NCBI GenBank assembly: GCA_964523015.1 | Contig: CAZFXN010000001.1 | Span: 8,976 to 72,975, forward strand | DNA: 64,000 nucleotides | Direction: 5' to 3' | DNA from: an uncultured Bdellovibrionales bacterium | Lineage (GTDB): Bacteria; Bdellovibrionota_C; UBA2361; J135 | Shown: piece by piece, positions 2 through 53,914 of the stretch | How positions within the stretch are numbered: position 1 is the stretch's first letter | Layout: every line of letters starts with the position of its first letter | Notes under the pieces: generated by a model | Database searches by the model: none | Told to the model about the DNA's origin: nothing | The model's input: only the letters and a program-made list of their open reading frames with translations | Position numbers and translations under genes: made by a program

Positions 2-247
2 GGTATAGCTGATGGTGAAGTTTCAATTGAAGACCTAGCCGAACTTAAATCATCCACTAAGATAACTTTTCCTGTCAGATTTGATCATGAGTTAGCTAAT
101 GCTTTTGAGATCTCTAAACTTCCATCACTCGTTGCCATTGACAATTACGATCCAAAGCCAATTTTTTATCGAGGACCATTAGCAATTGAACAGATCTGGG
201 ATTTTATAGATTTCTCCCTTAAAAAAATGAAGGGGAATAAAAGATGA
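2..247 (+). CDS. C-terminal fragment of a thioredoxin-fold T4SS protein (TraF/TrbB-like), 5' partial
   Basis: Open frame from the window edge ends ...TFPVRFDHELANAFEISKLPSLVAIDNYDPKPIFYRGPLAIEQIWDFI, a thioredoxin-fold C-terminus with cis-Pro-like TFPV and a beta-strand. The stop overlaps the next ATG (ATGA). Context is the F-type tra genes. Confidence 0.35.
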   Translation, partial: GIADGEVSIEDLAELKSSTKITFPVRFDHELANAFEISKLPSLVAIDNYDPKPIFYRGPLAIEQIWDFIDFSLKKMKGNKR

Positions 248-14458: not shown

Positions 14459-14902
14459 GTGAAAAAACTAATTGGAGTTACTATGAATGAAGTTAATTCT
14501 CTTTTACAAAAAGTAAAGGGAAGCTTTCTATCTACTGGTCAATATATTGGGGCTGTATTTTATGCACCTACAAGAGGCCAGAGTCAGATTGCTCTTTTCT
14601 TACTTGGAGTTATTATCCTATCAGGCGGTCTTACAATCCATGCAATTGCTCAAGGTGATGTGGGATCAGACCTCGTAGGTGAATACAATGACGAGCGTGT
14701 TTCTGAGGCCGTTAATAGAATCTTCGCTTATATCGAAGGTTCCTTTGGAGCCTTAATCATGGTTGCTGCTGGTTTAGGAGCAATTATGGCGGCTGCGTTC
14801 GGACAATATAGAGCTGCTTTAGGATTACTTGTTGTAGCGGTTGGATCATTTATCCTTCGCTCTCTTGTTGGAACATTCTTTAACACAGAGACAATTCAAT
14901 AA
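14459..14902 (+). CDS. T4SS pilin-like protein, paralog 1 (TrbC/VirB2/TraA-type architecture)
   Basis: Long leader with a TM helix ending AIAQ, then a ~85-aa region with two hydrophobic helices rich in small residues (GSFGALIMVAAGLGAIMAAAFG...GLLVVAVGSFILRSLVGTFFNTETIQ). Likely true start is ATG at 14483. Confidence 0.5.
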   Translation: MKKLIGVTMNEVNSLLQKVKGSFLSTGQYIGAVFYAPTRGQSQIALFLLGVIILSGGLTIHAIAQGDVGSDLVGEYNDERVSEAVNRIFAYIEGSFGALIMVAAGLGAIMAAAFGQYRAALGLLVVAVGSFILRSLVGTFFNTETIQ

Positions 14903-16157: not shown

Positions 16158-16589
16158 ATGTCTGTCTATACGTCATTGATAACCAAAGTAAGTAACTCGA
16201 CACAAAATGTAAGCCAGTATTTAGGCCAGTATTTAAGCACGATGTTTAATGCTCCAACAAAGAAGCAAACTCAATTTATGCTCTTCTGCCTAGGAATAAC
16301 GCTAGTTGCTTCAGGCATTACCGTTGAATTGCTAGCTCAAGGCGATGTGGGATCTGACCTCGTTGGTGAATATAACGATGAGCGTGTAGGTGAAGCTGTT
16401 AATAGAATCTTTGCCTATATTGAGGGATCTTTTGGAGCTTTAATCATGGTAGCCGCTGGATTAGGAGCAATTATGGCAGCTGCCCTTGGTAGCTACTCAG
16501 CAGCTATTGGACTCTTAGTAGTGGCAGTTGGAGCTTTCGTACTTAGATCTCTAGTTGGAACATTCTTTAATACTGAAAGTATTCAGTAA
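16158..16589 (+). CDS. T4SS pilin-like protein, paralog 2
   Basis: The C-terminal 85 aa are near-identical to paralog 1 (GDVGSDLVGEYNDERVGEAVNRIFAYIEGSFGALIMVAAGLGAIMAAALG...LRSLVGTFFNTESIQ), but the N-terminal leader is unrelated. RBS GGAGA upstream. Confidence 0.5.
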   Translation: MSVYTSLITKVSNSTQNVSQYLGQYLSTMFNAPTKKQTQFMLFCLGITLVASGITVELLAQGDVGSDLVGEYNDERVGEAVNRIFAYIEGSFGALIMVAAGLGAIMAAALGSYSAAIGLLVVAVGAFVLRSLVGTFFNTESIQ

Positions 16590-41245: not shown

Positions 41246-41473
41246 GTGACAAAGATACCTTCAGATATCGCAAAAAAATACATGACCGCTTGGAAAAAGG
41301 CCTCTGTCCTTTTTGATAATCTTAGAGCAGAAGAATTATCAGCAATAGATACAACTCAGGGGCTGCTTAGTTTGCTTCCTGCTTTTAATGCCTGCGTCAA
41401 AGAGCGAGAACTTTCTCTTACCTCCGGATTAATTGAACAACAGAAAATTTTCTCTCGCGCATATTCTAAATGA
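41246..41473 (+). CDS. small hypothetical protein (possible partner of downstream nucleotidyltransferase-fold protein)
   Basis: 75 aa. Its stop overlaps the next start (ATGA). Confidence 0.3.
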   Translation: MTKIPSDIAKKYMTAWKKASVLFDNLRAEELSAIDTTQGLLSLLPAFNACVKERELSLTSGLIEQQKIFSRAYSK

Positions 41474-42042
41474 AAAATATATTTGAAGAGGCCTATGTTT
41501 TGCAAGAATTTCTTGTAAAGAAGAAATTCGACTTCTGTTTTATAGGAGGACTTGCTCTACAGAGATGGGGAGATCTGCGCACTACAAATGATATCGATCT
41601 GACCTTACTAACAGGATTCAAAAATGAAGAGAGATTCATTGATGCCTTACTTGAGGAATATGAAGGAAGAATTCCATCAGTAAGAGAAACTGCCCTTACA
41701 GCCCGCGTTTTATTACTTAAAACTAAATCAGGGGTTGGCATAGATATAGCTTTAGGTGGTTTGCCGTTTGAGGAATCCAGTATCAAGCGATCTTCTCAAT
41801 CTGAATATTTGCCCGGTATTTTTCTAAGAACGTGTTCAGCTGAGGATCTCATTATTCACAAAGCATTTGCGTCTCGAAGAAAAGATTGGCTTGATATTGA
41901 AGGAATAATTCTACGTCAAAAAAATATAGATTGGGAGTATATAGAAAAACAATTGAAACCTCTGCTAGATCTAAAAGAAGAGCCAGAGAACTGGGATACC
42001 TTACTCCAACTACAAAATTCACTGCTCAAAACAAGTAAGTAG
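41470..42042 (+). CDS. nucleotidyltransferase-fold protein
   Basis: FIGGLALQRWGDLRTTNDIDLTL resembles the minimal NTase G[GS]...D.D motif. Confidence 0.35.
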   Translation: MKNIFEEAYVLQEFLVKKKFDFCFIGGLALQRWGDLRTTNDIDLTLLTGFKNEERFIDALLEEYEGRIPSVRETALTARVLLLKTKSGVGIDIALGGLPFEESSIKRSSQSEYLPGIFLRTCSAEDLIIHKAFASRRKDWLDIEGIILRQKNIDWEYIEKQLKPLLDLKEEPENWDTLLQLQNSLLKTSK

Positions 42043-42123
42043 CGTTAGAATATCGATTTTTGGTAAGCGTTCACGTGGTATCGCGACAAACGCAAACCAG
42101 AAACATTCTCTACCAACCCCTCA

Positions 42124-42184
42124 GTGGGAGGCCCTGTACTAAATATAGGGCCTAACATTGCAATTGCGAGCTGGCGAGCAATTG
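42124..42184 (+). repeat. copy A of a conserved structured element (GTGGGAGG + stem-loop + AACATTGC + stem-loop)
   Basis: gtgggAGGCCCTgtactaaatatAGGGCCTAACATTGCaattgc...gcaattg. A second copy is at 51946..52015 with compensatory changes in the first stem. Confidence 0.6.
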
Positions 42185-42344
42185 ACTCAACAGCCATTTG
42201 CGGAGCAAATCCGGGGTGATAAAGACTAACCGTTCACAAAAACGACAAAAGCGATCAGCTTTTGTCCCCTGGAATTACCACAAACTCACAATCTTAACCA
42301 CTTGATTGCAAGAACTATTTGTTACCCCGTGAACGGTTACGATT

Positions 42345-43853
42345 TTATTGTCGTGATTTTAAAAACGCTCTGGCATCTGCCACAAGTGAATCAGGAAAAT
42401 TTAAAGCGTATCCATGACCGACTCGCATCTTTGTAAATGGATCAGTCTCAATCTCTTCGGCACAATCAGAGATAATTTGTGAAGTAATTAGGTCGCTATT
42501 AGCACTGAGATACTCCTGATCATTTTTTAAATCTCCCTGCCAGGCTACTTCAAGTGAGTTATCGATATTAACAAACCAGCCCTTATGAATAGCTCTTACA
42601 AGTAGCTCTCTAGATGACATTGATAAGGCATCTGTATGTTTAAACCAACCAACATCCTGAAGGGCAACTTTACGAATAGCAAAATTCATCCCAGTAAATG
42701 GAGAAGAAAAAAGTTTATCAACTTGAACATGTCCGTCTGGGCCCTTTAATGATTCTTTAAGGGGACTCATTGAGCCACTTGGAATAATAATCGAAACTCG
42801 ATCTTCACGGAAAATTTTTATCGCTTCTAAAGCAAAATTTGAAGGAACAGTTGCCCCAACATGTAAAAAGGAGAGATAAAGGGAGCAAGAGGACTGTGCG
42901 CCAACATTCAGGGCTGCCCCAAAGGATCGTGTCAAACTTCTTACATACCTAAGTCGAGAACTGATTTTCCCAATCTCACCATCCTTTAAAGAGAGTAATT
43001 TGCGAAGCTCTTTGGCGACTTTTCTATCCTCAGAGTAATCAACAAGTAACACCTCAAAGTTTGTCATTGATTGCTGTGATAAATTCTCCAAAGTTTTCTT
43101 TAAAGCATCATCACAAGCATTAACCGGAACAATATAAGAGAATCCCCTTTCAACTATGTTAGCTGCGTGGGAATACCGATTAAAGATCCGAGACATCTCT
43201 GGCAGAAGCGGATCATTACCCTGACCGGTTTTATTATCTTCATACATTCGGTAATAAGAGAAAACTTTAGGAATCTGCTTTACGGTATGTCGTCCCCAAA
43301 CCCGCATCCATAGATCATAATCCATGCAGTAATAAAGCTCTTCATCAAGAAGCTTACCATCATGTCGACGAACCTCTTCAATTACTGATCTTCTAAAAAA
43401 TATCGAGGGTTGTGTAGGAATTGAGTAAGAGCACCAGTACTTCAGTAGATCATGCCAAGTTCTTGGAACGTTAACGACAGTGTAATCAACTTTTCCCGCG
43501 CGATCAGTAATCTGACACGCGCCAACAATCATCGAATGGATCTTTAGCTCTTCGGCCACCAATGGAAAAATATTCGGCTCATACCAATCATCAGAATTAA
43601 GCCAAGTGACGATATCACCAGTCGACTTTGCAAAACCCTTATTTAAGGCATCGGTTTGGCCGTTATCTGGCTCACTTGTCCAGATCAGATGTTTGTATGA
43701 TTTAAGGATCTCAACGGTATTATCGGTCGATCCTCCATCAACAACTATATGCTCAACATTTGGATAATCTTGGGCCAGGACTGATTCAATCGTATCTCGA
43801 ATAAATTCCCCCTGATTAAATGAGGGAGTGATAATCGAGATCTTCGACATCAT
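42345..43853 (-). CDS. two-domain family-2 glycosyltransferase
   Basis: ISIITPSFNQGEFIRDTIESVLAQDYPNVEHIVVDGGSTDNT. Second GT-like half FEVLLVDYSEDR. Confidence 0.7.
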   Translation of the reverse strand: MMSKISIITPSFNQGEFIRDTIESVLAQDYPNVEHIVVDGGSTDNTVEILKSYKHLIWTSEPDNGQTDALNKGFAKSTGDIVTWLNSDDWYEPNIFPLVAEELKIHSMIVGACQITDRAGKVDYTVVNVPRTWHDLLKYWCSYSIPTQPSIFFRRSVIEEVRRHDGKLLDEELYYCMDYDLWMRVWGRHTVKQIPKVFSYYRMYEDNKTGQGNDPLLPEMSRIFNRYSHAANIVERGFSYIVPVNACDDALKKTLENLSQQSMTNFEVLLVDYSEDRKVAKELRKLLSLKDGEIGKISSRLRYVRSLTRSFGAALNVGAQSSCSLYLSFLHVGATVPSNFALEAIKIFREDRVSIIIPSGSMSPLKESLKGPDGHVQVDKLFSSPFTGMNFAIRKVALQDVGWFKHTDALSMSSRELLVRAIHKGWFVNIDNSLEVAWQGDLKNDQEYLSANSDLITSQIISDCAEEIETDPFTKMRVGHGYALNFPDSLVADARAFLKSRQ

Positions 43854-44626
43854 TACGCTGCAGTCTCCTGAACTACTTCTTCGCTTTCTTCAGAGTTTTC
43901 TTCAGCACCTTCATCATTGGCCATTTCAGACTCAACAACTTCAGGCCACAAACAAACTATCTGCTCATCGGCTTTAAAATAAACCCCTAATTCATCGCCA
44001 TATCGCTGAAATCCGTACCGAACAGCACCGCCGTTATCACGTAGAAGATCTCTACAAGCTTTCTCCTCTCCCTTAAACCAGAGCTCCTGGTATCTTAAAA
44101 GAAGATCGCTATCATCAAGTAACTCTCGATCGATCATAGCTAAGCATCGTGTATCGACAAAGATTGTACCAAGCAACTCAGTACTCTCACGAGTCAACTC
44201 CTGTCCCTCTGTTCTACTTCCCTCAGGATGCACAACGATAGAGAACTCAAAAGGATCCCGTTCGATTCTATAAAGACCTGGTTCTACTTTAACTACACAG
44301 CCACCAAATTCCTGAACCAAGCTATCTCGGTCCTCTGGTGCAGCATCAACACTTTTGATAACAGCATCTACAAACTGTGGGTTGGCCAACATAAATTGGT
44401 CGATAATTATAAGCTGTCCACTCTCAACTGAGATTCTCTCTCGCTTATTACCACTTTGAGAAGCTTCTCTTGGATTACGAGAACGTCCACCACGGTTAGA
44501 CCTACCGTATCCACCAGTGCGACGTCCGCCGCCACCGCTTCTTAATCGATAAGAGGAACCGCCTCTACTACTACTACTACCACCACCACTACGTCCTCCT
44601 CGGCCTCTTGAATTTCGATAATTCAT
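43853..44626 (-). CDS. protein with N-terminal RGG/Gly-Arg-Ser-rich low-complexity region and acidic C-terminal tail
   Basis: The first 65 aa are RGRGGRSGGGSSSSRGGSSYRLRSGGGGRRTGGYGRSNRGGRSRNPRE. The C-terminus is EGAEENSEESEEVVQETAA. The stop overlaps the GT2 start (TAATG). Confidence 0.55.
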   Translation of the reverse strand: MNYRNSRGRGGRSGGGSSSSRGGSSYRLRSGGGGRRTGGYGRSNRGGRSRNPREASQSGNKRERISVESGQLIIIDQFMLANPQFVDAVIKSVDAAPEDRDSLVQEFGGCVVKVEPGLYRIERDPFEFSIVVHPEGSRTEGQELTRESTELLGTIFVDTRCLAMIDRELLDDSDLLLRYQELWFKGEEKACRDLLRDNGGAVRYGFQRYGDELGVYFKADEQIVCLWPEVVESEMANDEGAEENSEESEEVVQETAA

Positions 44627-44834
44627 ACTTCAACTCTATGTAACTAATAACAAAAATAATAAGCACCCTGCTCGGGCACCAAACAAACTCAAAGAAGCCT
44701 TGTATCATAAATTAGTACTAATATGCCAATTAGCCACTATGTAATTGCTTAAGCACTATCAAAGTCAGGTCGATAATTCATTATAGGTTAGATTTATACA
44801 ATCCGTAGTATTTTCAGTAGGTTATTTACAAAAA

Positions 44835-45338
44835 ATGAATCAGACATGTATCATAAATTCTGAAGGGGTCTGCTTTGATCCTGATGATATCACCCTTCTA
44901 GGAGTTTATTCTGATGAGTTATCTCTTTTTAGAGCAAAAAGCGGATGGACCAAGGTTTTAGAGTCCAACTTTATGCTTGAAGATACGCATGACTTTTCAA
45001 TTGAGATAGTAAAAGACTATGAGTCCCTTAGATTTCGACTAGCTTGCAGATTTAACACTGCTTGCGGACGGTATGCATTTTGGCGAATTACTAACTATCA
45101 GGCTCCAGAAGCTCAATATGAGATAGAAACTGCTCATATTCCTAACTCTAGCTCGCGACAACTTGATTTAATTTCAGCACCTGATCTACTTCCGCTTTAT
45201 AGTACACCGTTAGTAGTTACAGGACTCTCTGAGCAGCGTAGTAGTTCAGTACTTGCAAAGGTACTCTCTCAGATCAGTAAATTTCGTAGTAGGCTTCTTA
45301 GTGGGCTTCGTAGAAAGCTTGATAGTAAGTTCTCCTAA
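44835..45338 (+). CDS. hypothetical protein
   Basis: 167-aa ORF. No motif. Confidence 0.4.
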   Translation: MNQTCIINSEGVCFDPDDITLLGVYSDELSLFRAKSGWTKVLESNFMLEDTHDFSIEIVKDYESLRFRLACRFNTACGRYAFWRITNYQAPEAQYEIETAHIPNSSSRQLDLISAPDLLPLYSTPLVVTGLSEQRSSSVLAKVLSQISKFRSRLLSGLRRKLDSKFS

Positions 45339-45478: not shown

Positions 45479-46408
45479 TTGAGTAAGCTTATGCCACGCC
45501 TAAATAAAGATGGTAAATTTATAATCTCTGCCAGTGAAGTTGGCAGCTATACAGTATGTCCAGAGAGTTGGCGTTTACGCAGCGTGTTAGCTGTGAACAG
45601 AGAAGATACCGATCGCTCAAAAAAAGGGATGGTTAAGCACGATGAATGGACTGTTACCTATGACGAGCATCTCTTTTTAGCTCGTAGTTCTAGAATTGTT
45701 TTAGCCTTACTTATCTTAGCAATTGCTGCATTTCTTTTAATTAGTGAACACTCGATTGTTTTACCTTAGGTTTTTATGAATGAATCCATCAAAGAATTCT
45801 CGATCGAAACTCTAAGTCAGATCGTCCTTCTTGACACTGATTTTATCTTACTCGCAGTTTTAGTGGCTGTAGTTGTTATTCTCTACGATAGTTTTTATTA
45901 CGTTTCCCGAAAGAAGCTAAAAGAGACCGGAATTCAACCAAAAGCTGTTGCGCATTCAATAGACGGCAGTAAGAATCTACCGATTAAAAATTATATCTCA
46001 GAGATTCAAGGTTTAGCTGGACGTCCTGATGCATTAATTATTGAAAATGGGTTTATAATTCCAGTAGAGAGAAAACCATTAGCACGCAAATTACGGGATA
46101 GGTACGTGGCTCAACTCTTAGTCTACATGCGATTAATCGAAGAGTTTGAGGGGAAGAAACCACCGTACGGTTACTTAATCCTTGGCGGTAATTGTCGGCG
46201 AATTAAAATAATGAATACCCCAAAACGTCAAATATGGGTTCAAGGTATTATAGATGAGATGCGTGCTATTTTAGCTGGCCAAGAATCCCGACCAACACCA
46301 GAAGCACGAAAATGCTCAAAGTGCGATGTTAAAAACCACTGCAAATTTGATGCTTCAAAAAGTAGTGATATGGCCGTACAGATAAATGCGCAGATCAATA
46401 AGAGATAG
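45479..46408 (+). pseudogene. Cas4/DUF83-like PD-(D/E)xK nuclease interrupted by in-frame TAG, with internal TM hairpin
   Basis: ORFs 45479..45769 and 45776..46408 are in the same frame, separated by TAG-GTT-TTT. The N-terminal part has a YxxCP-like motif (GSYTVCPESWRLRSV). The C-terminal part has GRPDALI, IPVERKP (ExK), QLLVYMRLIEE (QxxxY) and CSKCDVKNHC. Hydrophobic helices flank the stop. Confidence 0.4.
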
Positions 46409-46474: not shown

Positions 46475-46939
46475 TCATAGCTCTTTCTCTAAGATAATTC
46501 CATGGTGCTTCTCTCTAATTTTTTTGTAAACGCCCGTAATATCAAACCCTTCACGGATGTTCAGAAGTAACATGCCACGATACTTGTTCTTGGTTTGGGT
46601 TCTAATAAATTTAAATCCTTTCGCCTTAGCAATCTCGTGTTGTCTTTTCAAAAGGGATCGAGCAATGCCTTTTCTGCGAAACCCCTCCATGACTCCACCG
46701 TTCCAACTGTAGAAATACTCATTGTCCGAGTGATACTCAAAGCCAATCTTATAGGCGCATGGTTTGCCCTCGAAATATCCGACCAATATGGTCAGATTGG
46801 GGCGAGTTTCAAGCTCTCTCTTTAGAATTTCTCGACTGAGAGGCTCTTCGAAGATCTTAGCCTCAAGTTCAATGAGCAGGTTCAGGACCGACTCGGTCAA
46901 TTCAGTAAACTCTTTAATTTCAAATTTATCCATAAGCAA
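46475..46939 (-). CDS. GNAT family N-acetyltransferase
   Basis: Motif A FRRKGIARSLLKRQHEIAKAKGFKFI. Confidence 0.7.
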   Translation of the reverse strand: MLMDKFEIKEFTELTESVLNLLIELEAKIFEEPLSREILKRELETRPNLTILVGYFEGKPCAYKIGFEYHSDNEYFYSWNGGVMEGFRRKGIARSLLKRQHEIAKAKGFKFIRTQTKNKYRGMLLLNIREGFDITGVYKKIREKHHGIILEKEL

Positions 46940-46972
46940 TAACTCTCAGGCTGACAATATCAAGGTTAGCAG

Positions 46973-48142
46973 TCAAATAGTCGAACTAACTCCTAATATT
47001 TTCAATATTCCTTTATCCCACGACATACTTGTAATTGGACCAATCTCTTTTTCGAATGAATCACGACTAAGGCAGTATGCTCCAGAGTGTTTCATATCAG
47101 CAGCCAAAGTTTTAAATGATCCTAGGTCCTCTGGGTAAATTGTTCTAGCAGATTTAATTTCGACAAGAATCGGATCTTTGTTAGGCAACTCAACTATAAG
47201 ATCTATCTCAGCTCCATCTTTAGTTCGTAGATATGAGAATTTAGCTCTTTTCTTAAAATAACTGTTTAGTCGAATGAACTCAAGTATTACATGTTGCTCA
47301 AAAGTATCTCCATATAATGAAGTACTTTCATTTAGAGCTGATTCATTTGTTCTTAAAATTGCACGTGGCACACCGCAATCAAAAAAGTAAAACTTTGGTG
47401 CTTGAGTTTGCTGTTTTCTTATCGACCGACTATATGCTGGTAATATCACACCAATATACGTCTCTTCTAATATTGCAAAATACTCCTTTATGGTGTCAGG
47501 AGTAACACCAACATCCCGTCCAATACTAGAATAGTTCAATATCTTAGTATTCATTTGTGCGGCAACATCAAGAAATCTCCTAAATGGTGGCAACTGTCTT
47601 ATAAGTTGCTCAGCAACAATCTCTTCCTTTAAATAAGTATCTACGTAGGAATGAAGATACTCAATCTTTAACTCCCGACTAGTTAGCTTAGTAAGACTGG
47701 GGAGCGTTCCCCAATCTAGTGCTGACTGAAGATCAAAATCCTCTTTAAGCTCAAGATATGTTAGCGGATACAGTTCGTATAATAGCGCTCTGCCTGCAAG
47801 TAGGTTTGCATTCCCACGTTTTAATTTTCTAGAGCTAGACCCACTAAGGATAAAGATTAAATCATTCTCTTCAATGAGCAGATGCACAACATTAAGTAAG
47901 TTAGGAACTCTTTGAACTTCATCAATAATAATCAGTGATTTAGGAGGCGCTTTTCTGACTCTTTCAACTATCGAATCCGGTCTCTGGCTCAACGAATAAT
48001 ATTCATCATCATTAAGGAGATTTACGGAGAGGTAGGCCTGCGATGCAAATCTCTCCCTTAATATCGTAGATTTTCCTACGGCACGTGCTCCAAACAGGAA
48101 AAAACTACTGTCTTTTAAGGGGGTTATTAATCTATCTATCAT
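46973..48142 (-). CDS. AAA-type ATPase with DUF4143-like domain (paralog of 26233..27450)
   Basis: Walker A LFGARAVGKST and Walker B LIIIDEVQ. Confidence 0.65.
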   Translation of the reverse strand: MIDRLITPLKDSSFFLFGARAVGKSTILRERFASQAYLSVNLLNDDEYYSLSQRPDSIVERVRKAPPKSLIIIDEVQRVPNLLNVVHLLIEENDLIFILSGSSSRKLKRGNANLLAGRALLYELYPLTYLELKEDFDLQSALDWGTLPSLTKLTSRELKIEYLHSYVDTYLKEEIVAEQLIRQLPPFRRFLDVAAQMNTKILNYSSIGRDVGVTPDTIKEYFAILEETYIGVILPAYSRSIRKQQTQAPKFYFFDCGVPRAILRTNESALNESTSLYGDTFEQHVILEFIRLNSYFKKRAKFSYLRTKDGAEIDLIVELPNKDPILVEIKSARTIYPEDLGSFKTLAADMKHSGAYCLSRDSFEKEIGPITSMSWDKGILKILGVSSTI

Positions 48143-48231: not shown

Positions 48232-49533
48232 CTAAGTCCCATCATCCTCCAACACCTTATCCCCTTCTGAAACTGCAATGATAGCTGAGCCGACACTATC
48301 GCCCCAGACATTGACAGAGGTACGAACCATATCAAGCACACGATCGACGACGACAATTAGTTGGATTCCTTCTAGTGGTAAATTAACGACTCCTAAAACC
48401 ATGGTCATCATCACTAGACCTGCGCCTGGAATTCCTGCTGCGCCAATAGCTGAAAAGGTGGCGGTTATAAAGATAGCAAACTGTTGTGGGAATGTAAGAT
48501 CAACTCCATACATATTAGCGATAAAGATGGCCGCGATAGCTTCATAGATAGCTGTACCATCCATATTAGCAGTAGCGCCAAGAGGGGCTACGAATCCAGC
48601 TACCTTATTTGACACTCCTGCTCTCTTCTCTAAACAGTCAATCGTTATCGGTAAAGTCATTGAGGAGGACGCAGTCGAAAATGATGTAGATATAGCTGGG
48701 AAAAGAGCCTTAAAAAGCTTCAATGGATTAACTTTAAATACTAATGCTAGGAGTGATAAGCTGATAACACCATGAAAAAACAACCCGCATAGTACAGTTA
48801 CTGTGTAAGATCCGATATGAGTGCCTAATTCTACTAACCGGTCGTCATTGTAAAACTCTAAGGTCAGATTTGCTACTAAGGAAAAAATTCCAAATGGCGC
48901 AACATACATCACCTTATCAACCATCCAAATAATCGCCCCAAAGAGACAATCAACTAACTCTCTAACTGTATGAGTAACCTTATGTTGGGTATTTAAAATT
49001 GCTAATCCCAAAAAGATGGAGAAAAATATAAGTCCTAATATATTTCCTTTAGAAGCTGCTTCGAAGATATTTTTAGGAAAGATTCCTTTTATAACTTCAG
49101 TTAATCCTCCATGTCCCGCTACCTGCGCTACCTGCCCTACTTCTGGTATAATATTAACAGCTGCAACTAGACCCCCAGATTTTCCTGGCTCTATGATATT
49201 CACTAATATGAGTCCAGTTAGTACTGCTATGGCAGTTGTAGCAGTATAATAAACGATCGCTTTTAATCCTAACCTGCCTAAGCTTTCAGTATCTCCTAGA
49301 TTTAAGATTCCAGAGATCATTGAAACTACAACCACCGGCACAATTAGCATCATGAGAAGTCGTAAAAAGATCTCTCCTAGGATTTTTATCGAAGGAACTA
49401 GCTCTGGTAGAAAAACTCCGCCCAATGCTCCAAACAGAATTGAAAGCATCATTAGGGTGTTAAGATGTCCTTTGTAAAAGGTAAATATCTTTTGAATAAA
49501 AGATTTATGCAAAATTCCCCTGATTCGCAGCAA
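48232..49533 (-). CDS. dicarboxylate/amino acid:cation symporter (DAACS/GltP family)
   Basis: 8-10 TM helices with characteristic reentrant-loop-like motifs (SSS..TLP, AxxxxGxPGAG). Confidence 0.75.
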   Translation of the reverse strand: MLRIRGILHKSFIQKIFTFYKGHLNTLMMLSILFGALGGVFLPELVPSIKILGEIFLRLLMMLIVPVVVVSMISGILNLGDTESLGRLGLKAIVYYTATTAIAVLTGLILVNIIEPGKSGGLVAAVNIIPEVGQVAQVAGHGGLTEVIKGIFPKNIFEAASKGNILGLIFFSIFLGLAILNTQHKVTHTVRELVDCLFGAIIWMVDKVMYVAPFGIFSLVANLTLEFYNDDRLVELGTHIGSYTVTVLCGLFFHGVISLSLLALVFKVNPLKLFKALFPAISTSFSTASSSMTLPITIDCLEKRAGVSNKVAGFVAPLGATANMDGTAIYEAIAAIFIANMYGVDLTFPQQFAIFITATFSAIGAAGIPGAGLVMMTMVLGVVNLPLEGIQLIVVVDRVLDMVRTSVNVWGDSVGSAIIAVSEGDKVLEDDGT

Positions 49534-50314
49534 AGAGCGAAAGCTGTGAAGATGGAATTCCTAAGAAAAGCATAATTTCCTTTATTACCTCATGCACTTC
49601 ATCAGGCCAACTTTGCGGATCAAGGATATCAAGGTTTACGCTTAGCGGTGCAATATCTAAAGAGAGAACTTCATTTCTCTCTGGATGAGCCACATTTAAA
49701 AGTTTTGTTTTGGGCTCCCAGGCAAATCGAGCAACAGTACCAGATGACTTCTTTACCCCTGTCTCAAAGCTTTCTGCTAAAAAATCCCTGCCACTGATTA
49801 TAGTTAAATCAGGATTTGCTTGTTTTGCAAAAGTTTCTCCTACTTTGATCATTCTAGCGGCTGATAAAAATAGATTTCTTAAATTCTGCTCATTTCCAGG
49901 TAACCGAAGCCCCCCTTCAACAGTACCGTATCTATTTTTAAGAGAGCTTCGACACAGCCAAAGAATATTTTCCCCCTCAAATGTAACATCGGAGATATTT
50001 CTAAGCTCAAAACCCTGGGCCCACCTAAATGTGGAATCTAAATCTTTAGAGGTAACATATGATGAAATGTAGTTGATCGATATCTCAGTATTCTCTGACA
50101 AATCTTCTGCTTCTTTTTTACAACCAAAGCACTCTCCAAATCTCCTCTTTAATCCACTTTCTGGAACAACTCGTCGATCACAAACTGTAAAACAACCATT
50201 GCAGGAGAGCGAAGTGACAACATGGCCAAAATCAGAGACATAACTAGCTAGCAGAGATATCAGTGGTGTTTCAGGAGAGGCCAAACTATACGGATTAAAT
50301 AATGCTATCTTCAT
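49505..50314 (-). CDS. hypothetical Cys-rich protein
   Basis: CNGCFTVCDRR...FGECFGCKK paired CxxC motifs (Zn-ribbon-like). Overlaps the transporter gene by 29 nt. Confidence 0.45.
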   Translation of the reverse strand: MKIALFNPYSLASPETPLISLLASYVSDFGHVVTSLSCNGCFTVCDRRVVPESGLKRRFGECFGCKKEAEDLSENTEISINYISSYVTSKDLDSTFRWAQGFELRNISDVTFEGENILWLCRSSLKNRYGTVEGGLRLPGNEQNLRNLFLSAARMIKVGETFAKQANPDLTIISGRDFLAESFETGVKKSSGTVARFAWEPKTKLLNVAHPERNEVLSLDIAPLSVNLDILDPQSWPDEVHEVIKEIMLFLGIPSSQLSLFAANQGNFA

Positions 50315-51057
50315 ATTGCCTGCACTGAGGTAATTTTTGACGTGTTAGTATCCCTATAAATTAAATAATACGATATTGAGTCTGTCGGGAGATAATCTGT
50401 TGTGACAGAGAGAGATTTCATAAGGCCCCAGCTCATCTCTTGAGGGTATAGGTTTGTAAAAGTGGCTCCTTCTAATTTTCGCTCAACTACAGAGGCTGGT
50501 GGAACCTGTCCAAGAGGCACAATTGATTTTACCACCTCTCCGCCTTTACTCTCTTTTATATAGATACCGGGACGAAGCTCAGACTGAGTTCCATTCACTA
50601 TAACTATTGATGGAGTCACTGAAGCATCTTTCATCAGTAAATGAGGAGTCGGTGTTGTTAATGGTGGAGTTACGTTCCCTTGTACCTCATCTTGCATGAT
50701 CATTTTGCGAGGTGCAAATTTTAAAGGTCTTTCAATATTAGAAAACTCAATTACACATTGAGAGGCTGAAACATCAGACCGTGTTTGACTTGAGTAGACA
50801 TCTACCTCAAGAGCAACCATATTTGTAGGATCAGCTGATTCTAACGGGAAAAGTGATGCTATTCTGACACCATCTGGATGAAATAATCGGGCCCCATCAA
50901 TCGCAAGACGAGATCTTTCAACGCCACGTCCATATACAGTAAATGCCATTTCAACTGGATATGGTGTTGCTGCTCCTGGGGTAGCTGGCAGGAAATGTAC
51001 TGTGGTCTCAGCCGCACTCTCAGGATTTGCAAAAACTAGCCAACGAACAGCCTTCAT
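50311..51057 (-). CDS. hypothetical protein
   Basis: 248-aa ORF. ATGA overlap with the downstream gene. Confidence 0.45.
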   Translation of the reverse strand: MKAVRWLVFANPESAAETTVHFLPATPGAATPYPVEMAFTVYGRGVERSRLAIDGARLFHPDGVRIASLFPLESADPTNMVALEVDVYSSQTRSDVSASQCVIEFSNIERPLKFAPRKMIMQDEVQGNVTPPLTTPTPHLLMKDASVTPSIVIVNGTQSELRPGIYIKESKGGEVVKSIVPLGQVPPASVVERKLEGATFTNLYPQEMSWGLMKSLSVTTDYLPTDSISYYLIYRDTNTSKITSVQAI

Positions 51058-51070
51058 TAAGATATCCTAT

Positions 51071-51733
51071 TTAATTCACCATAATATAATTACACCCATT
51101 TTCTGTCGCATATTGTTCAAACATGCCAACTGCCAAAGCGTTCTCCGTTTTACAACGTGTCCTTACATATGAAGAGATTCTCTGCTTCATACTCAAATCT
51201 GTAATTTCATCAAATTCAGCTTCAACGCTTATCAGTTTTGTAGTGTAAGGTTTCAGCTCATAGTTATTTTCCGGAGCTCTATTTGGAGCAATCAGTCTTA
51301 CAATCGCTTCAATGGGATTTTCTGTTGGATTTGAAAGAATGAGATATGAGCTAATAGATCTTGAAAACAACTTTGGAAAGAATGCTGGCTCTAATGTTGA
51401 CACCTTTCTAAGTGGTCCAGCAAAAAAAGTATTAAAGGCCGATTTAAGGCGAACACCAACCGCACATGAGTCAGGCATGGTTAACGACATTAACGAATGC
51501 CTAAATCCTAAATCAGGTAAAAGCTCCCCTATTAAATTATCAAGCTCAACTGAGAGCGCCTTGCCTGGATCGATTCCAATAGAGAGCTCCTTAAAGAGCT
51601 CTCCCTTAGGAGAATACAACTTTAAAAGGTACTCAGCTGCGCTACCTTGCTTAATGCCATCCTCATTTCCAGAGAGATGCAGTGTAGAGCTTAGGTCTCC
51701 ACCACAGGGCCCCCAATAATTAAGTGTCTTCAC
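51071..51733 (-). CDS. hypothetical protein
   Basis: 220-aa ORF, first gene of a 4-gene minus-strand operon. Confidence 0.45.
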   Translation of the reverse strand: MKTLNYWGPCGGDLSSTLHLSGNEDGIKQGSAAEYLLKLYSPKGELFKELSIGIDPGKALSVELDNLIGELLPDLGFRHSLMSLTMPDSCAVGVRLKSAFNTFFAGPLRKVSTLEPAFFPKLFSRSISSYLILSNPTENPIEAIVRLIAPNRAPENNYELKPYTTKLISVEAEFDEITDLSMKQRISSYVRTRCKTENALAVGMFEQYATENGCNYIMVN

Positions 51734-51945: not shown

Positions 51946-52015
51946 GTGGGGAGGCTCTTTAGCACGAAGTGCAATAAGAGCCTAACATTGCTGACGCTAG
52001 CTAGCGTAGCGTCAG
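51946..52015 (+). repeat. copy B of the conserved structured element
   Basis: gtggggAGGCTCTTtagcacgaagtgcaatAAGAGCCTAACATTGCtgacgcta..tagcgtcag. Preceded by two more hairpins (gcccctttaaggggc; cccaagcGAAgcttggg). Confidence 0.6.
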
Positions 52016-52213
52016 ATTCAACATTAAGATAAACAGCAGTTGTCATAAGTAAAAAAGTAAAGCCGGTAGGCTTTTCAAGAAAGCTTTACAACAAATTCTA
52101 CTTACCAAACCCACATATTTTCATCTCAATCTCTATGACAACTGATATAACTCTTTAATCAAATCGGCAACTTGCCGATAAACATAATAACGACAAGCCA
52201 TTAGAAAGGTAAA

Positions 52214-53068: not shown

Positions 53069-53914
53069 TTATTTTAGTGCGACAGGTGGCTCAACTTTTG
53101 TTGAAGCATCACTGCTTACGTGACCATGTTTTTTACTCTTACTAATATCCCAGTTATCAATAATTTTTGGCTGAACATGTGGTCGATTGGATACATATCC
53201 CTGATCATCATCTTGCGAAGATGCAAATCTAGTTTGAAACATAGTTAAAGGAACTGAGTATTGAGCTAAATGTTTAACAGGAATCCGCTCAAGACTTGAT
53301 GGCATACTGCCACCACGTAAAAGCTTTGCTACTTCATAGTTCTTAGAAACTTCAACTGACCCGCTTGAAAGAATCATTGATGAAGCTGGATCAATTAACC
53401 TGACATTTACATACACAGTCTCAGGTGAAGCGATGTAAGTCCCAGCTAAGATAGCTGCTAAGTCATGTGATTTTCGTATAGATCCAACATCTCTTGATAG
53501 AGAAAATTCTCCAGCATCTGATAAGAACCTTAGAGCGTCCCCTTGACGCAACTCAATTACATCATATCCGCGCATTACTAATTCACTGATCAACTGTTCA
53601 GCGAATATACGTCCAAATGCAGATGTAGAATATAAATCGTTAAGGTTAACCATTGTGGTTACGCCAATTGGCCCTGAGGATGTTCCACGATAGTAGTAAT
53701 CAATCTGGTCAGCTATGTAAGAGGTCTTAAAGCTCCCCACTCCAAAGTTGTGTGGATTCCCCATATTAACTGGCATATAGGAGGGAACATCGTGATATCG
53801 CTTGCTGCACCCTGACATTGAGACGATAGCCCAAATAAGGATTGTAAGACTTATCGATTGGCCCAATAATTGTATCCAATCTACTTTAGATTTAGCTTTA
53901 TTTTTATCTTCCAT
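53069..53914 (-). CDS. CsgG/LpoB-fold-like lipoprotein
   Basis: Lipobox VSMSGC. Alternating pattern similar to CsgG (IGVTTMVNLND; ILAGTYIASPETVYVNVRLIDPASSMILSS). Confidence 0.4.
   Translation of the reverse strand: MEDKNKAKSKVDWIQLLGQSISLTILIWAIVSMSGCSKRYHDVPSYMPVNMGNPHNFGVGSFKTSYIADQIDYYYRGTSSGPIGVTTMVNLNDLYSTSAFGRIFAEQLISELVMRGYDVIELRQGDALRFLSDAGEFSLSRDVGSIRKSHDLAAILAGTYIASPETVYVNVRLIDPASSMILSSGSVEVSKNYEVAKLLRGGSMPSSLERIPVKHLAQYSVPLTMFQTRFASSQDDDQGYVSNRPHVQPKIIDNWDISKSKKHGHVSSDASTKVEPPVALK

Follow-up and report, generated by a model that had tools for sequence, protein, structure and literature searches.

A basic RG-rich tail on an unnamed acidic domain in a bacterial lineage known from metagenome assemblies

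The RG-tailed gene and its product

The subject of this analysis is a gene on the reverse strand of a 64,000-nucleotide stretch of contig CAZFXN010000001.1 from an uncultured Bdellovibrionales bacterium, and this whole stretch is called the window below. The gene is a complete open reading frame (ORF) at 43853..44626, with an ATG start, 257 codons for 257 amino acids, and a TAA stop (43853-43855) that is included in the coordinates; the identical protein is present in public contigs as P0001. The product has three parts: a disordered basic N-terminal tail rich in RG and serine (residues 1-57; 44456..44626, reverse strand), an acidic globular domain of an unnamed family with a net charge of -14 (residues 58-232; 43931..44455, reverse strand), and an acidic, low-confidence C-terminal tail with a net charge of -11 (residues 233-257 and the stop codon; 43853..43930, reverse strand). 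The original prediction, made from the letters of the window, had described an RGG-rich tract followed by a domain of about 170 residues and an acidic tail. That architecture holds: the domain belongs to an unnamed family and is genuinely globular, and the C-terminal tail, EVVESEMANDEGAEENSEESEEVVQETAA, is 41% D+E.

The RG-rich tract is translated, as had been proposed. Its reading frame is open in 75 of the 75 unique related loci, while the other two sense frames over the tail contain a mean of 2.5 stops and are free of stops in 18% of cases. Across the same loci the GC content of the tail at codon positions 1, 2 and 3 is 0.66, 0.74 and 0.38, a pattern which fits coding and indicates that arginine and glycine are kept at the first two positions while the third tracks the AT-rich background. 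Together these three observations rule out the frame artefact which the original prediction had itself raised as the alternative. A microsatellite origin of the whole tract at the DNA level is also ruled out: its arginines and glycines are spelled by mixed codons, and the sole find by Tandem Repeats Finder in the tract is a 28-nt (GGT/AGT)n trinucleotide run (44565..44592, reverse strand), which codes for GGGSSSS. The serine run of this segment is missing in the nearest homologues of the window protein, which suggests that the trinucleotide run expanded recently by slippage in this organism.

One could still suppose that the ORF or its N-terminal tract is a composition artefact or has a wrong start, with no true coding feature behind it, and the lack of any sigma-70-like promoter on the gene's strand of the intergenic region at 44627-44834 would fit that idea. 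Besides the frame and codon-position evidence, it has to contend with the 552 homologous protein clusters recovered by a search with the globular part alone, and with the N-terminus MNYRN(S/T)RG, which is common to the close homologues. The artefact explanation appears to be effectively refuted already, and the ORF is real and under selection at the protein level.

Residues 1-57, MNYRNSRGRGGRSGGGSSSSRGGSSYRLRSGGGGRRTGGYGRSNRGGRSRNPREASQ, are 25% R and 30% G with a net charge of +13, and no other RG-rich tract turned up when all six frames of the 64 kb were scanned. An AlphaFold2 model was built with 112 homologues (mean predicted local distance difference test, pLDDT, 80.5; predicted template modelling score, pTM, 0.71), and in it residues 1-50 have a pLDDT of 41-59 without secondary structure, so that disorder is predicted here. 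The disordered region which characterises RGG/RG-motif proteins is found in this form: the confidence is low, and length and sequence vary among the homologues. Ahead of a conserved SGNxRERI motif, the tract has a mean length of 51 residues (range 2-116) and is 27% R and 34% G among the 120 homologues listed, and the pooled composition of the tail in 112 aligned sequences is 36% G, 27% R, 7% N and 6% S. The composition of the tail is conserved across the clade while its sequence and length drift.

The strict spacing rules for RGG boxes reportedly go back to Thandapani et al. 2013. By these rules, the 3 RGG and 4 RG of the window protein's 57-residue tail yield one Di-RG (RGRG) only, with the RGG triplets isolated, while among the 112 homologues strictly spaced arrays are present as Tri-RGG in 41, Di-RGG in 68, Tri-RG in 78 and Di-RG in 98. 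Under the broad definition the family would count as RGG/RG-motif proteins; under the strict one most relatives would too, but the window copy would not. In AT-rich relatives the tail is instead rich in N, K and R, as in MRRNNNKNYKSKYNNKRGYKRNNYSRNPR. What the family conserves is a long tail, disordered and strongly basic, for which RG is the usual spelling, and not the RGG box as such.

The tail is also peculiar to this family. The RG-tailed family accounts for 77 of the 79 RG-rich ORFs in 0.87 Mb of related loci, which indicates that such tails are specific to it and no general habit of these genomes. One of the two RG-rich ORFs outside the family (locus L022:453-917, reverse strand) encodes a standard bacterial RNA recognition motif (RRM) protein (LYVGNL / KGFGFVEM) with a long Gly/Arg-rich C-terminal tail, about 5 kb from a family gene. 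The lineage therefore attaches tails of this kind to a true RNA binder, and a bacterial precedent exists. With this precedent, and with tails rich in N, K and R in the AT-rich relatives, the label "eukaryote-style" which had been given to the tract is better dropped. A compositionally conserved RG tail throughout a clade is unusual for a bacterial protein, yet it has bacterial precedent.

Behind the tail, the model is confident. By ten-residue blocks the pLDDT is 85-98 over residues 51-200 and 78-95 over residues 201-230 (lower at about 201-210), and it falls to about 55 in the C-terminal tail. The predicted secondary structure runs strand-strand, three helices, three strands, and then repeats, which gives [bb-aaa-bbb] twice (residues 64-134 and 150-228). 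The putative first half of this duplication spans residues 62-135 (RISVESGQLIIIDQFML...GGCVV...PGLYRIERDP; 44222..44443) and the second half residues 148-229 (TIFVDTRCLAMIDRELL...GGAVRYGF...GDELGVY; 43940..44185), both on the reverse strand, and profile-profile comparison of the two with hhalign aligns them in register (RISVESGQLIIIDQFMLANPQF... with TIFVDTRCLAMIDRELLDDSDL...) at E = 0.013. Given the repeated order of secondary structure and the in-register halves, the domain probably arose by an ancient internal duplication.

Eight residues are invariant over both tiers of the family described below: D76, G108, R123, K189, R192, D193, R196 and F206. Nearly invariant are E63, S69, G70, Q77, M79, N82, G109, G117, T159, R160, C161 and D166, and further along G199, V202, R203, Y204, G205, D211 and L213. 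Conserved basic and acidic side chains within a very acidic body suggest a putative defined binding site.

Searches of the libraries gave the domain no name. The RG-tailed protein has no match in Pfam (E <= 0.1), NCBIfam, PHROGs or PADLOC, and a Pfam scan of 25 homologues at E <= 10 returned just scattered single weak matches. Sequence searches of the PDB with two profiles of the RG-tailed protein (A1, A7) and one of its neighbour N167 (A5) found nothing meaningful, and Foldseek against the PDB with the domain model returned nothing below E = 0.36, which is not significant. Both the domain family and N167 are unnamed in every library searched. Neither a signal peptide nor a membrane span was found in the RG-tailed protein; its most hydrophobic 19-residue Kyte-Doolittle window reaches 1.37 and lies inside the fold.

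Distribution of the family and its conserved neighbours

An exhaustive hidden Markov model search of 1.84 billion representatives yielded 133 clusters at 50% identity, which fall into two tiers. The first consists of the RG-tailed proteins, and the second of some 100 clusters that are more divergent and share the domain, but whose N-termini are short and neutral or slightly acidic; these tail-less clusters also come from metagenome-assembled genomes (MAGs) labelled Oligoflexia or 'Deltaproteobacteria'. All 120 listed homologues carry the source name 'hypothetical', and they are 60-82% identical over the domain. In a scan of one genome per GTDB species the family was found in 87 species, all of them MAGs, with the labels Bdellovibrionota, Bdellovibrionales, Oligoflexia, 'Deltaproteobacteria' and a few others. 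Across these species the domain is 55-80% identical and synteny is fixed. A viral contig collection held no relative of the RG-tailed protein.

In a neighbour-joining tree of the domain, the proteins with strongly basic tails group together, and their sister group has short, neutral N-termini. This clustering makes the tail look like a single acquisition which was then kept. The charges of the two groups differ throughout: the tailed proteins carry +12.6 in the tail, -12.4 in the domain and -4.7 in the C-terminal tail, and the untailed ones +0.4 in the N-terminus, -7.8 in the domain and -2.6 in the C-terminal tail. The RG-tailed gene is a vertically inherited, lineage-specific core gene of the chromosome.

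The most constant neighbour of the gene is N167, which codes for a 167-residue protein of an unnamed family (44835..45338, forward strand) recognised by synteny and alignments and by the motif ACGRYAFWRLTNxQAPEAQYxIETAHIP. A homologue of N167 lies within 1.5 kb upstream of the RG-tail gene, and is divergently transcribed from it, in 70 of 71 loci. N167 and the domain gene are also paired in two of the three tail-less sister-group loci examined. Its 95 homologues are all named 'hypothetical', and its AlphaFold2 model, at a pLDDT of 90, has structure matches to generic alpha/beta-sandwiches only.

Beyond N167 lies a Cas4-family nuclease which is split over two genes. The N-terminal piece, N96 (45479..45769, forward strand), has 96 residues with a single cysteine, Cys27, and a C-terminal transmembrane-like segment at residues 71-89. 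The second piece (45776..46408, forward strand) has 210 residues and carries the Cas4-like PD-(D/E)XK nuclease core (Pfam Cas_Cas4 at 3e-8; PADLOC Cas4 at 4e-15), an N-terminal transmembrane-like segment (most hydrophobic 19-residue window 17-35) and a C-terminal CxxCx5C motif (C180, C183, C189). With Cys27 on one chain and CxxCx5C on the other, the usual Fe-S cluster of Cas4 would have to bridge two membrane-anchored polypeptides. The split layout recurs in most related loci, and no CRISPR context was seen around the split genes. A Cas4-like nuclease lies within 3 kb of the RG-tail gene, beyond N167, in 53 of 64 loci.

The RG-tail gene and N167 diverge from 208 bp of intergenic DNA (44627..44834), which holds a terminator-like hairpin, GGTGCCCGAGCAGGGTGCT, followed by the T-run TATTATTTTT (44680-44662, reverse strand). 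The hairpin belongs to the leader of the RG-tail gene: it stands 36-54 nt ahead of the start codon, and no gene precedes it on the reverse strand. It may serve as a leader or attenuator structure, and the family as a whole does not conserve it. No regulatory motif common to the intergenic regions of all relatives was found. The motif YHGGGC is enriched, occurring in 24 of 75 intergenic regions against 5.9 in shuffles, and belongs to leaders specific to sub-clades.

On the other side, the RG-tail gene is followed by a gene for a GT2 glycosyltransferase of 502 residues (42345..43853, reverse strand), which matches Pfam PF00535 at 6e-37 and has two GT2-like stretches. The stop of the RG-tail gene was said to overlap the start of a two-domain GT2 gene, and it does: in the TAATG at 43851..43855 (reverse strand) the TAA is at 43855-43853 and the ATG at 43853-43851. 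The GT2 gene also has an AGGAG of its own (43865-43869, reverse strand), 11 nt upstream of its ATG. When contigs of the same organism are left out of the count, the RG-tail gene is followed immediately by a GT2 homologue in 3 of 71 related loci (L004, L008 and L012, the closest relatives), and in L004 and L008 there is a spacer and not an overlap, with about 50 nt between the tblastn matches and, in L004, 20 nt between the called genes. In the other loci the downstream gene is an epimerase, a histidine/sensor kinase, a CN-hydrolase, a pterin dehydratase or a PMT-type transferase. Adjacency in just 3 of 71 loci rules out a conserved GT2 operon, and the functional coupling to a glycosyltransferase that had been suggested finds no backing in these varied downstream genes. 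The adjacency is local, and the conserved partners are N167 and, usually, the membrane nuclease, not the GT2 gene.

Possible roles of the tail and the domain

Disordered RG/RGG regions are among the commonest RNA-binding modules of eukaryotes, and to our knowledge they are rarely described in bacteria beyond the tails of RRM proteins, helicases and RNase E. A literature search on bacterial RG-rich proteins found nothing relevant to the RG-tailed family. By analogy, the RG-tailed protein seems to work most like an RGG/RG-motif protein. RGG/RG regions are established as disordered RNA-binding modules (PMC9718894), and a role of the tail in binding nucleic acids is a reasonable reading of the likeness. 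With eukaryotic RGG/RG proteins such as hnRNP U, FUS, nucleolin, Npl3 and Scd6 (PMC9718894), the family shares a disordered tract of closely spaced RG/RGG on a folded domain, as well as a composition which is kept while sequence and length drift (Tri-RGG in 41/112 and Di-RGG in 68/112 of the family). It differs in that the gene is bacterial and vertically inherited, in that the tail's partner is an unnamed acidic domain and not an RRM, KH or helicase domain, and in that the window copy has only isolated RGG triplets and the AT-rich relatives have tails rich in N, K and R. Methylation of the arginines by a PRMT is a further mark of RGG/RG-motif proteins; in Pfam, NCBIfam, PHROGs and PADLOC scans of 17 selected ORFs at 36.1-53.9 kb, no methyltransferase family was matched.

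Glycine-rich RNA-binding proteins of the RRM type are known in bacteria, of which the cyanobacterial Rbp type is one. Like these, and like the example at L022:453-917, the RG-tailed protein is a small bacterial protein which joins a folded module to a Gly/Arg-rich disordered tail. Their tail, however, is C-terminal and their RRM has RNP-1 and RNP-2, whereas the RG-tailed protein has its tail at the N-terminus and no RRM; with no match to RRM_1 or to any other Pfam family, it is not an RRM protein. A further comparison is with HMGB1 and with Hfq, which has an acidic C-terminal tip; in both a basic nucleic-acid-binding region is combined with an autoinhibitory acidic tail. The RG-tailed protein has the same block-separated charge, a basic region and an acidic tail, and adds an acidic body. 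There is no homology to either, and any autoinhibition of the RG-tailed protein would be hypothetical.

Our preferred reading, which we hold tentatively, is that the gene encodes a soluble cytoplasmic protein of a lineage-specific core family, whose basic tail would bind nucleic acids or other polyanions and which would act with N167 and the nuclease. The disordered, strongly basic N-terminal tail (about +12) would bind non-specifically and multivalently to RNA, DNA or another polyanion, as eukaryotic RG regions do, and would tether the highly conserved, acidic, duplicated alpha/beta domain (about -13), which may bear the specific function. The invariant cluster of R123, K189, R192, D193 and R196 would fit a site for a defined ligand or partner. 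Since the charges of tail and body are opposite and roughly equal, the tail probably folds back or bridges molecules: it might fold onto the acidic body and the C-terminal tail, as in autoinhibition, or it might link molecules by self-association or in a condensate, until nucleic acid competes. The protein may work with N167 and, in the majority of genomes, with the split Cas4-type nuclease anchored in the membrane, and these conserved neighbours would place its role in nucleic-acid handling rather than in glycosylation. The reality of the gene, its architecture, conservation, synteny and charge pattern are observed, and the binding of nucleic acids, the interplay of tail and body and the cooperation with neighbours are what we infer from them.

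Several points weigh against this reading. Adjacency and divergent transcription are no proof of a shared function, and a Cas4-like nuclease is missing near the RG-tail gene in 11 of the 64 loci. The low pLDDT of the tail is only a proxy for disorder, and the tail of the window copy is degenerate, unusually rich in serine and left with a single strict Di-RG. The charge of the N-terminus correlates with that of the rest of the protein at r = -0.69 (n = 202, uncorrected for phylogeny), but this is mostly a contrast between two clades, and within the tailed clade r is -0.26. The Pfam, PDB and Foldseek searches yielded no informative homologue of the domain to pinpoint a specific function, and the host lineage is known from metagenome assemblies only.

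The high conservation of the domain could also be explained by a different role. An RNA chaperone, or a factor associated with the ribosome or another ribonucleoprotein (RNP), could use the tail in the way that ribosomal proteins use their basic extensions, or bacterial RRM proteins their GR tails, while its domain docks on a conserved RNP, and such docking would explain why the domain is 55-80% identical over 87 species, a level typical of core machinery. The GR-tailed RRM protein of the same lineage fits such a role, as does the binding of RNA by RG regions (PMC9718894). We nonetheless think it unlikely, given that no translation or RNA-processing genes are linked in the neighbourhoods, that the sister group keeps the domain without the tail, and that structure searches detected no RNA-binding fold. 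If instead the tail were a device for localisation or scaffolding, by binding polyphosphate or by self-coacervation with the acidic body, the domain could bind a small molecule and no nucleic acid at all; yet its fold matches do not rise above noise, there is no ligand to name, and the conserved nuclease neighbourhood points to nucleic acids, which makes this quite improbable.

In B. subtilis, Nin/ComJ keeps NucA, the DNA-entry nuclease of the membrane, in check. A regulator of this type is conceivable here, in which the acidic domain binds, restrains or targets the membrane Cas4-like nuclease while the basic tail holds the substrate DNA. To ComJ/Nin (PDB 4mqd) and CgnJ (PDB 6i86), however, the RG-tailed protein has no sequence similarity, and Foldseek gave no significant match; its domain is about 175 residues long and internally duplicated, and the nuclease next to it is of the Cas4/PD-(D/E)XK and not the NucA type, lies on the other strand and occurs in 53 of the 64 loci. 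Pfam searches matched the ComJ family neither with the protein (E <= 0.1) nor with 25 homologues (E <= 10), PDB profile searches did not retrieve 4mqd, and a literature search on CgnJ/ComJ returned nothing relevant to the RG-tailed family. By sequence the protein is not of the ComJ family, the resemblance in fold is a lead only, and we regard a regulator of this kind as quite unlikely.

Last, the protein had been proposed as a secreted effector that mimics eukaryotic proteins, or as one tied to the GT2 enzyme by translational coupling. The tract does look RGG-like, the TAATG overlap is real in this genome, and GT2 follows in the three closest relatives; but it follows in 3 of 71 loci only and behind a spacer in two of those, and the GT2 gene has its own AGGAG. 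An effector mimic is argued against by the pattern of a vertical core gene within one lineage, known from environmental metagenomes, with fixed synteny and 55-80% domain identity in 87 species, by the lack of copies on viral contigs and by the lack of any hydrophobic, signal-like N-terminal segment. Taken as a pair, these proposals are very improbable.

The preferred reading of a basic tail which binds nucleic acids and acts beside N167 has a bolder extension. The protein could be an RGG-type scaffold, self-neutralised by its acidic body and condensing on nucleic acids, which forms a module with N167 and the split Cas4; at the inner membrane, this module would take hold of DNA or RNA, retain it and process it. 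Such a module we consider distinctly improbable as it stands. If it were true, bacteria would have in this protein an equivalent of the RGG granule scaffolds of eukaryotes, and it would be linked to a new nuclease system in which an Fe-S cluster bridges two polypeptides.

The interest of the family does not depend on that extension. A basic RG tail is kept by selection in its composition and not its sequence, over a whole bacterial clade, on a domain which the databases do not name, and the tail-less sister group with the same domain offers a natural experiment, with and without, on what the tail adds. The family also marks a conserved neighbourhood of three or four genes, which code for the RG-tailed protein, for N167 and for the split membrane Cas4-like nuclease, and the phylum that carries it is of ecological interest. 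Should the tail drive condensation or the capture of nucleic acids, it would provide a tractable bacterial model for RGG-mediated assembly.

Flanking repeats and the wider neighbourhood

The original prediction had placed the gene within a block flanked by structured repeats, and these repeats exist. They are two copies of a two-hairpin element of about 80 nt, at ~42118-42200 and ~51947-52025 on the forward strand, which share the core GCCTAACATTGC. The stems of the two copies differ in sequence yet are self-complementary, and the single-stranded parts are common to both (GCCTAACATTGC; A(C/T)TCAACA). Folding z-scores on the forward strand are -3.7 and -2.8. Rfam gave no match over the whole window at the gathering score, nor over 41.9-52.3 kb at E <= 1, and the core GCCTAACATTGC is absent from all 91 related loci that were fetched. 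The element could be a small RNA specific to the lineage or an element like repetitive extragenic palindromes (REP-like). A mobile island bounded by the repeats is ruled out, as the backbone genes keep their order in relatives without the repeat, and the block between the repeats is old chromosomal backbone with local insertions.

The backbone extends past the nuclease. Three consecutive proteins of 269, 248 and 220 residues without a significant Pfam match (49505-51733, reverse strand) and a FlgO-domain protein (53069-53914, reverse strand) keep their order beside the Cas4-like, N167 and RG-tail genes in at least 10-13 relatives, which suggests a larger conserved neighbourhood around the RG-tail gene. 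Set into this syntenic backbone are a GNAT acetyltransferase and an ATPase of the DUF4143/PDC-S01 type (PADLOC 1e-61), both at 46475-48142 on the reverse strand, and neither has a counterpart in the related loci. Together with a symporter they are insertions peculiar to this genome. An AbiEii/DUF6036 nucleotidyltransferase gene, which follows a small upstream ORF (41246-42042, forward strand), is listed with the genome-specific insertions, and the comparison with relatives covered the GNAT and ATPase genes. Elsewhere in the window, a direct repeat of 255 nt lies at 14648-14902 and 16335-16589; its copies are 78% identical and 1687 nt apart.

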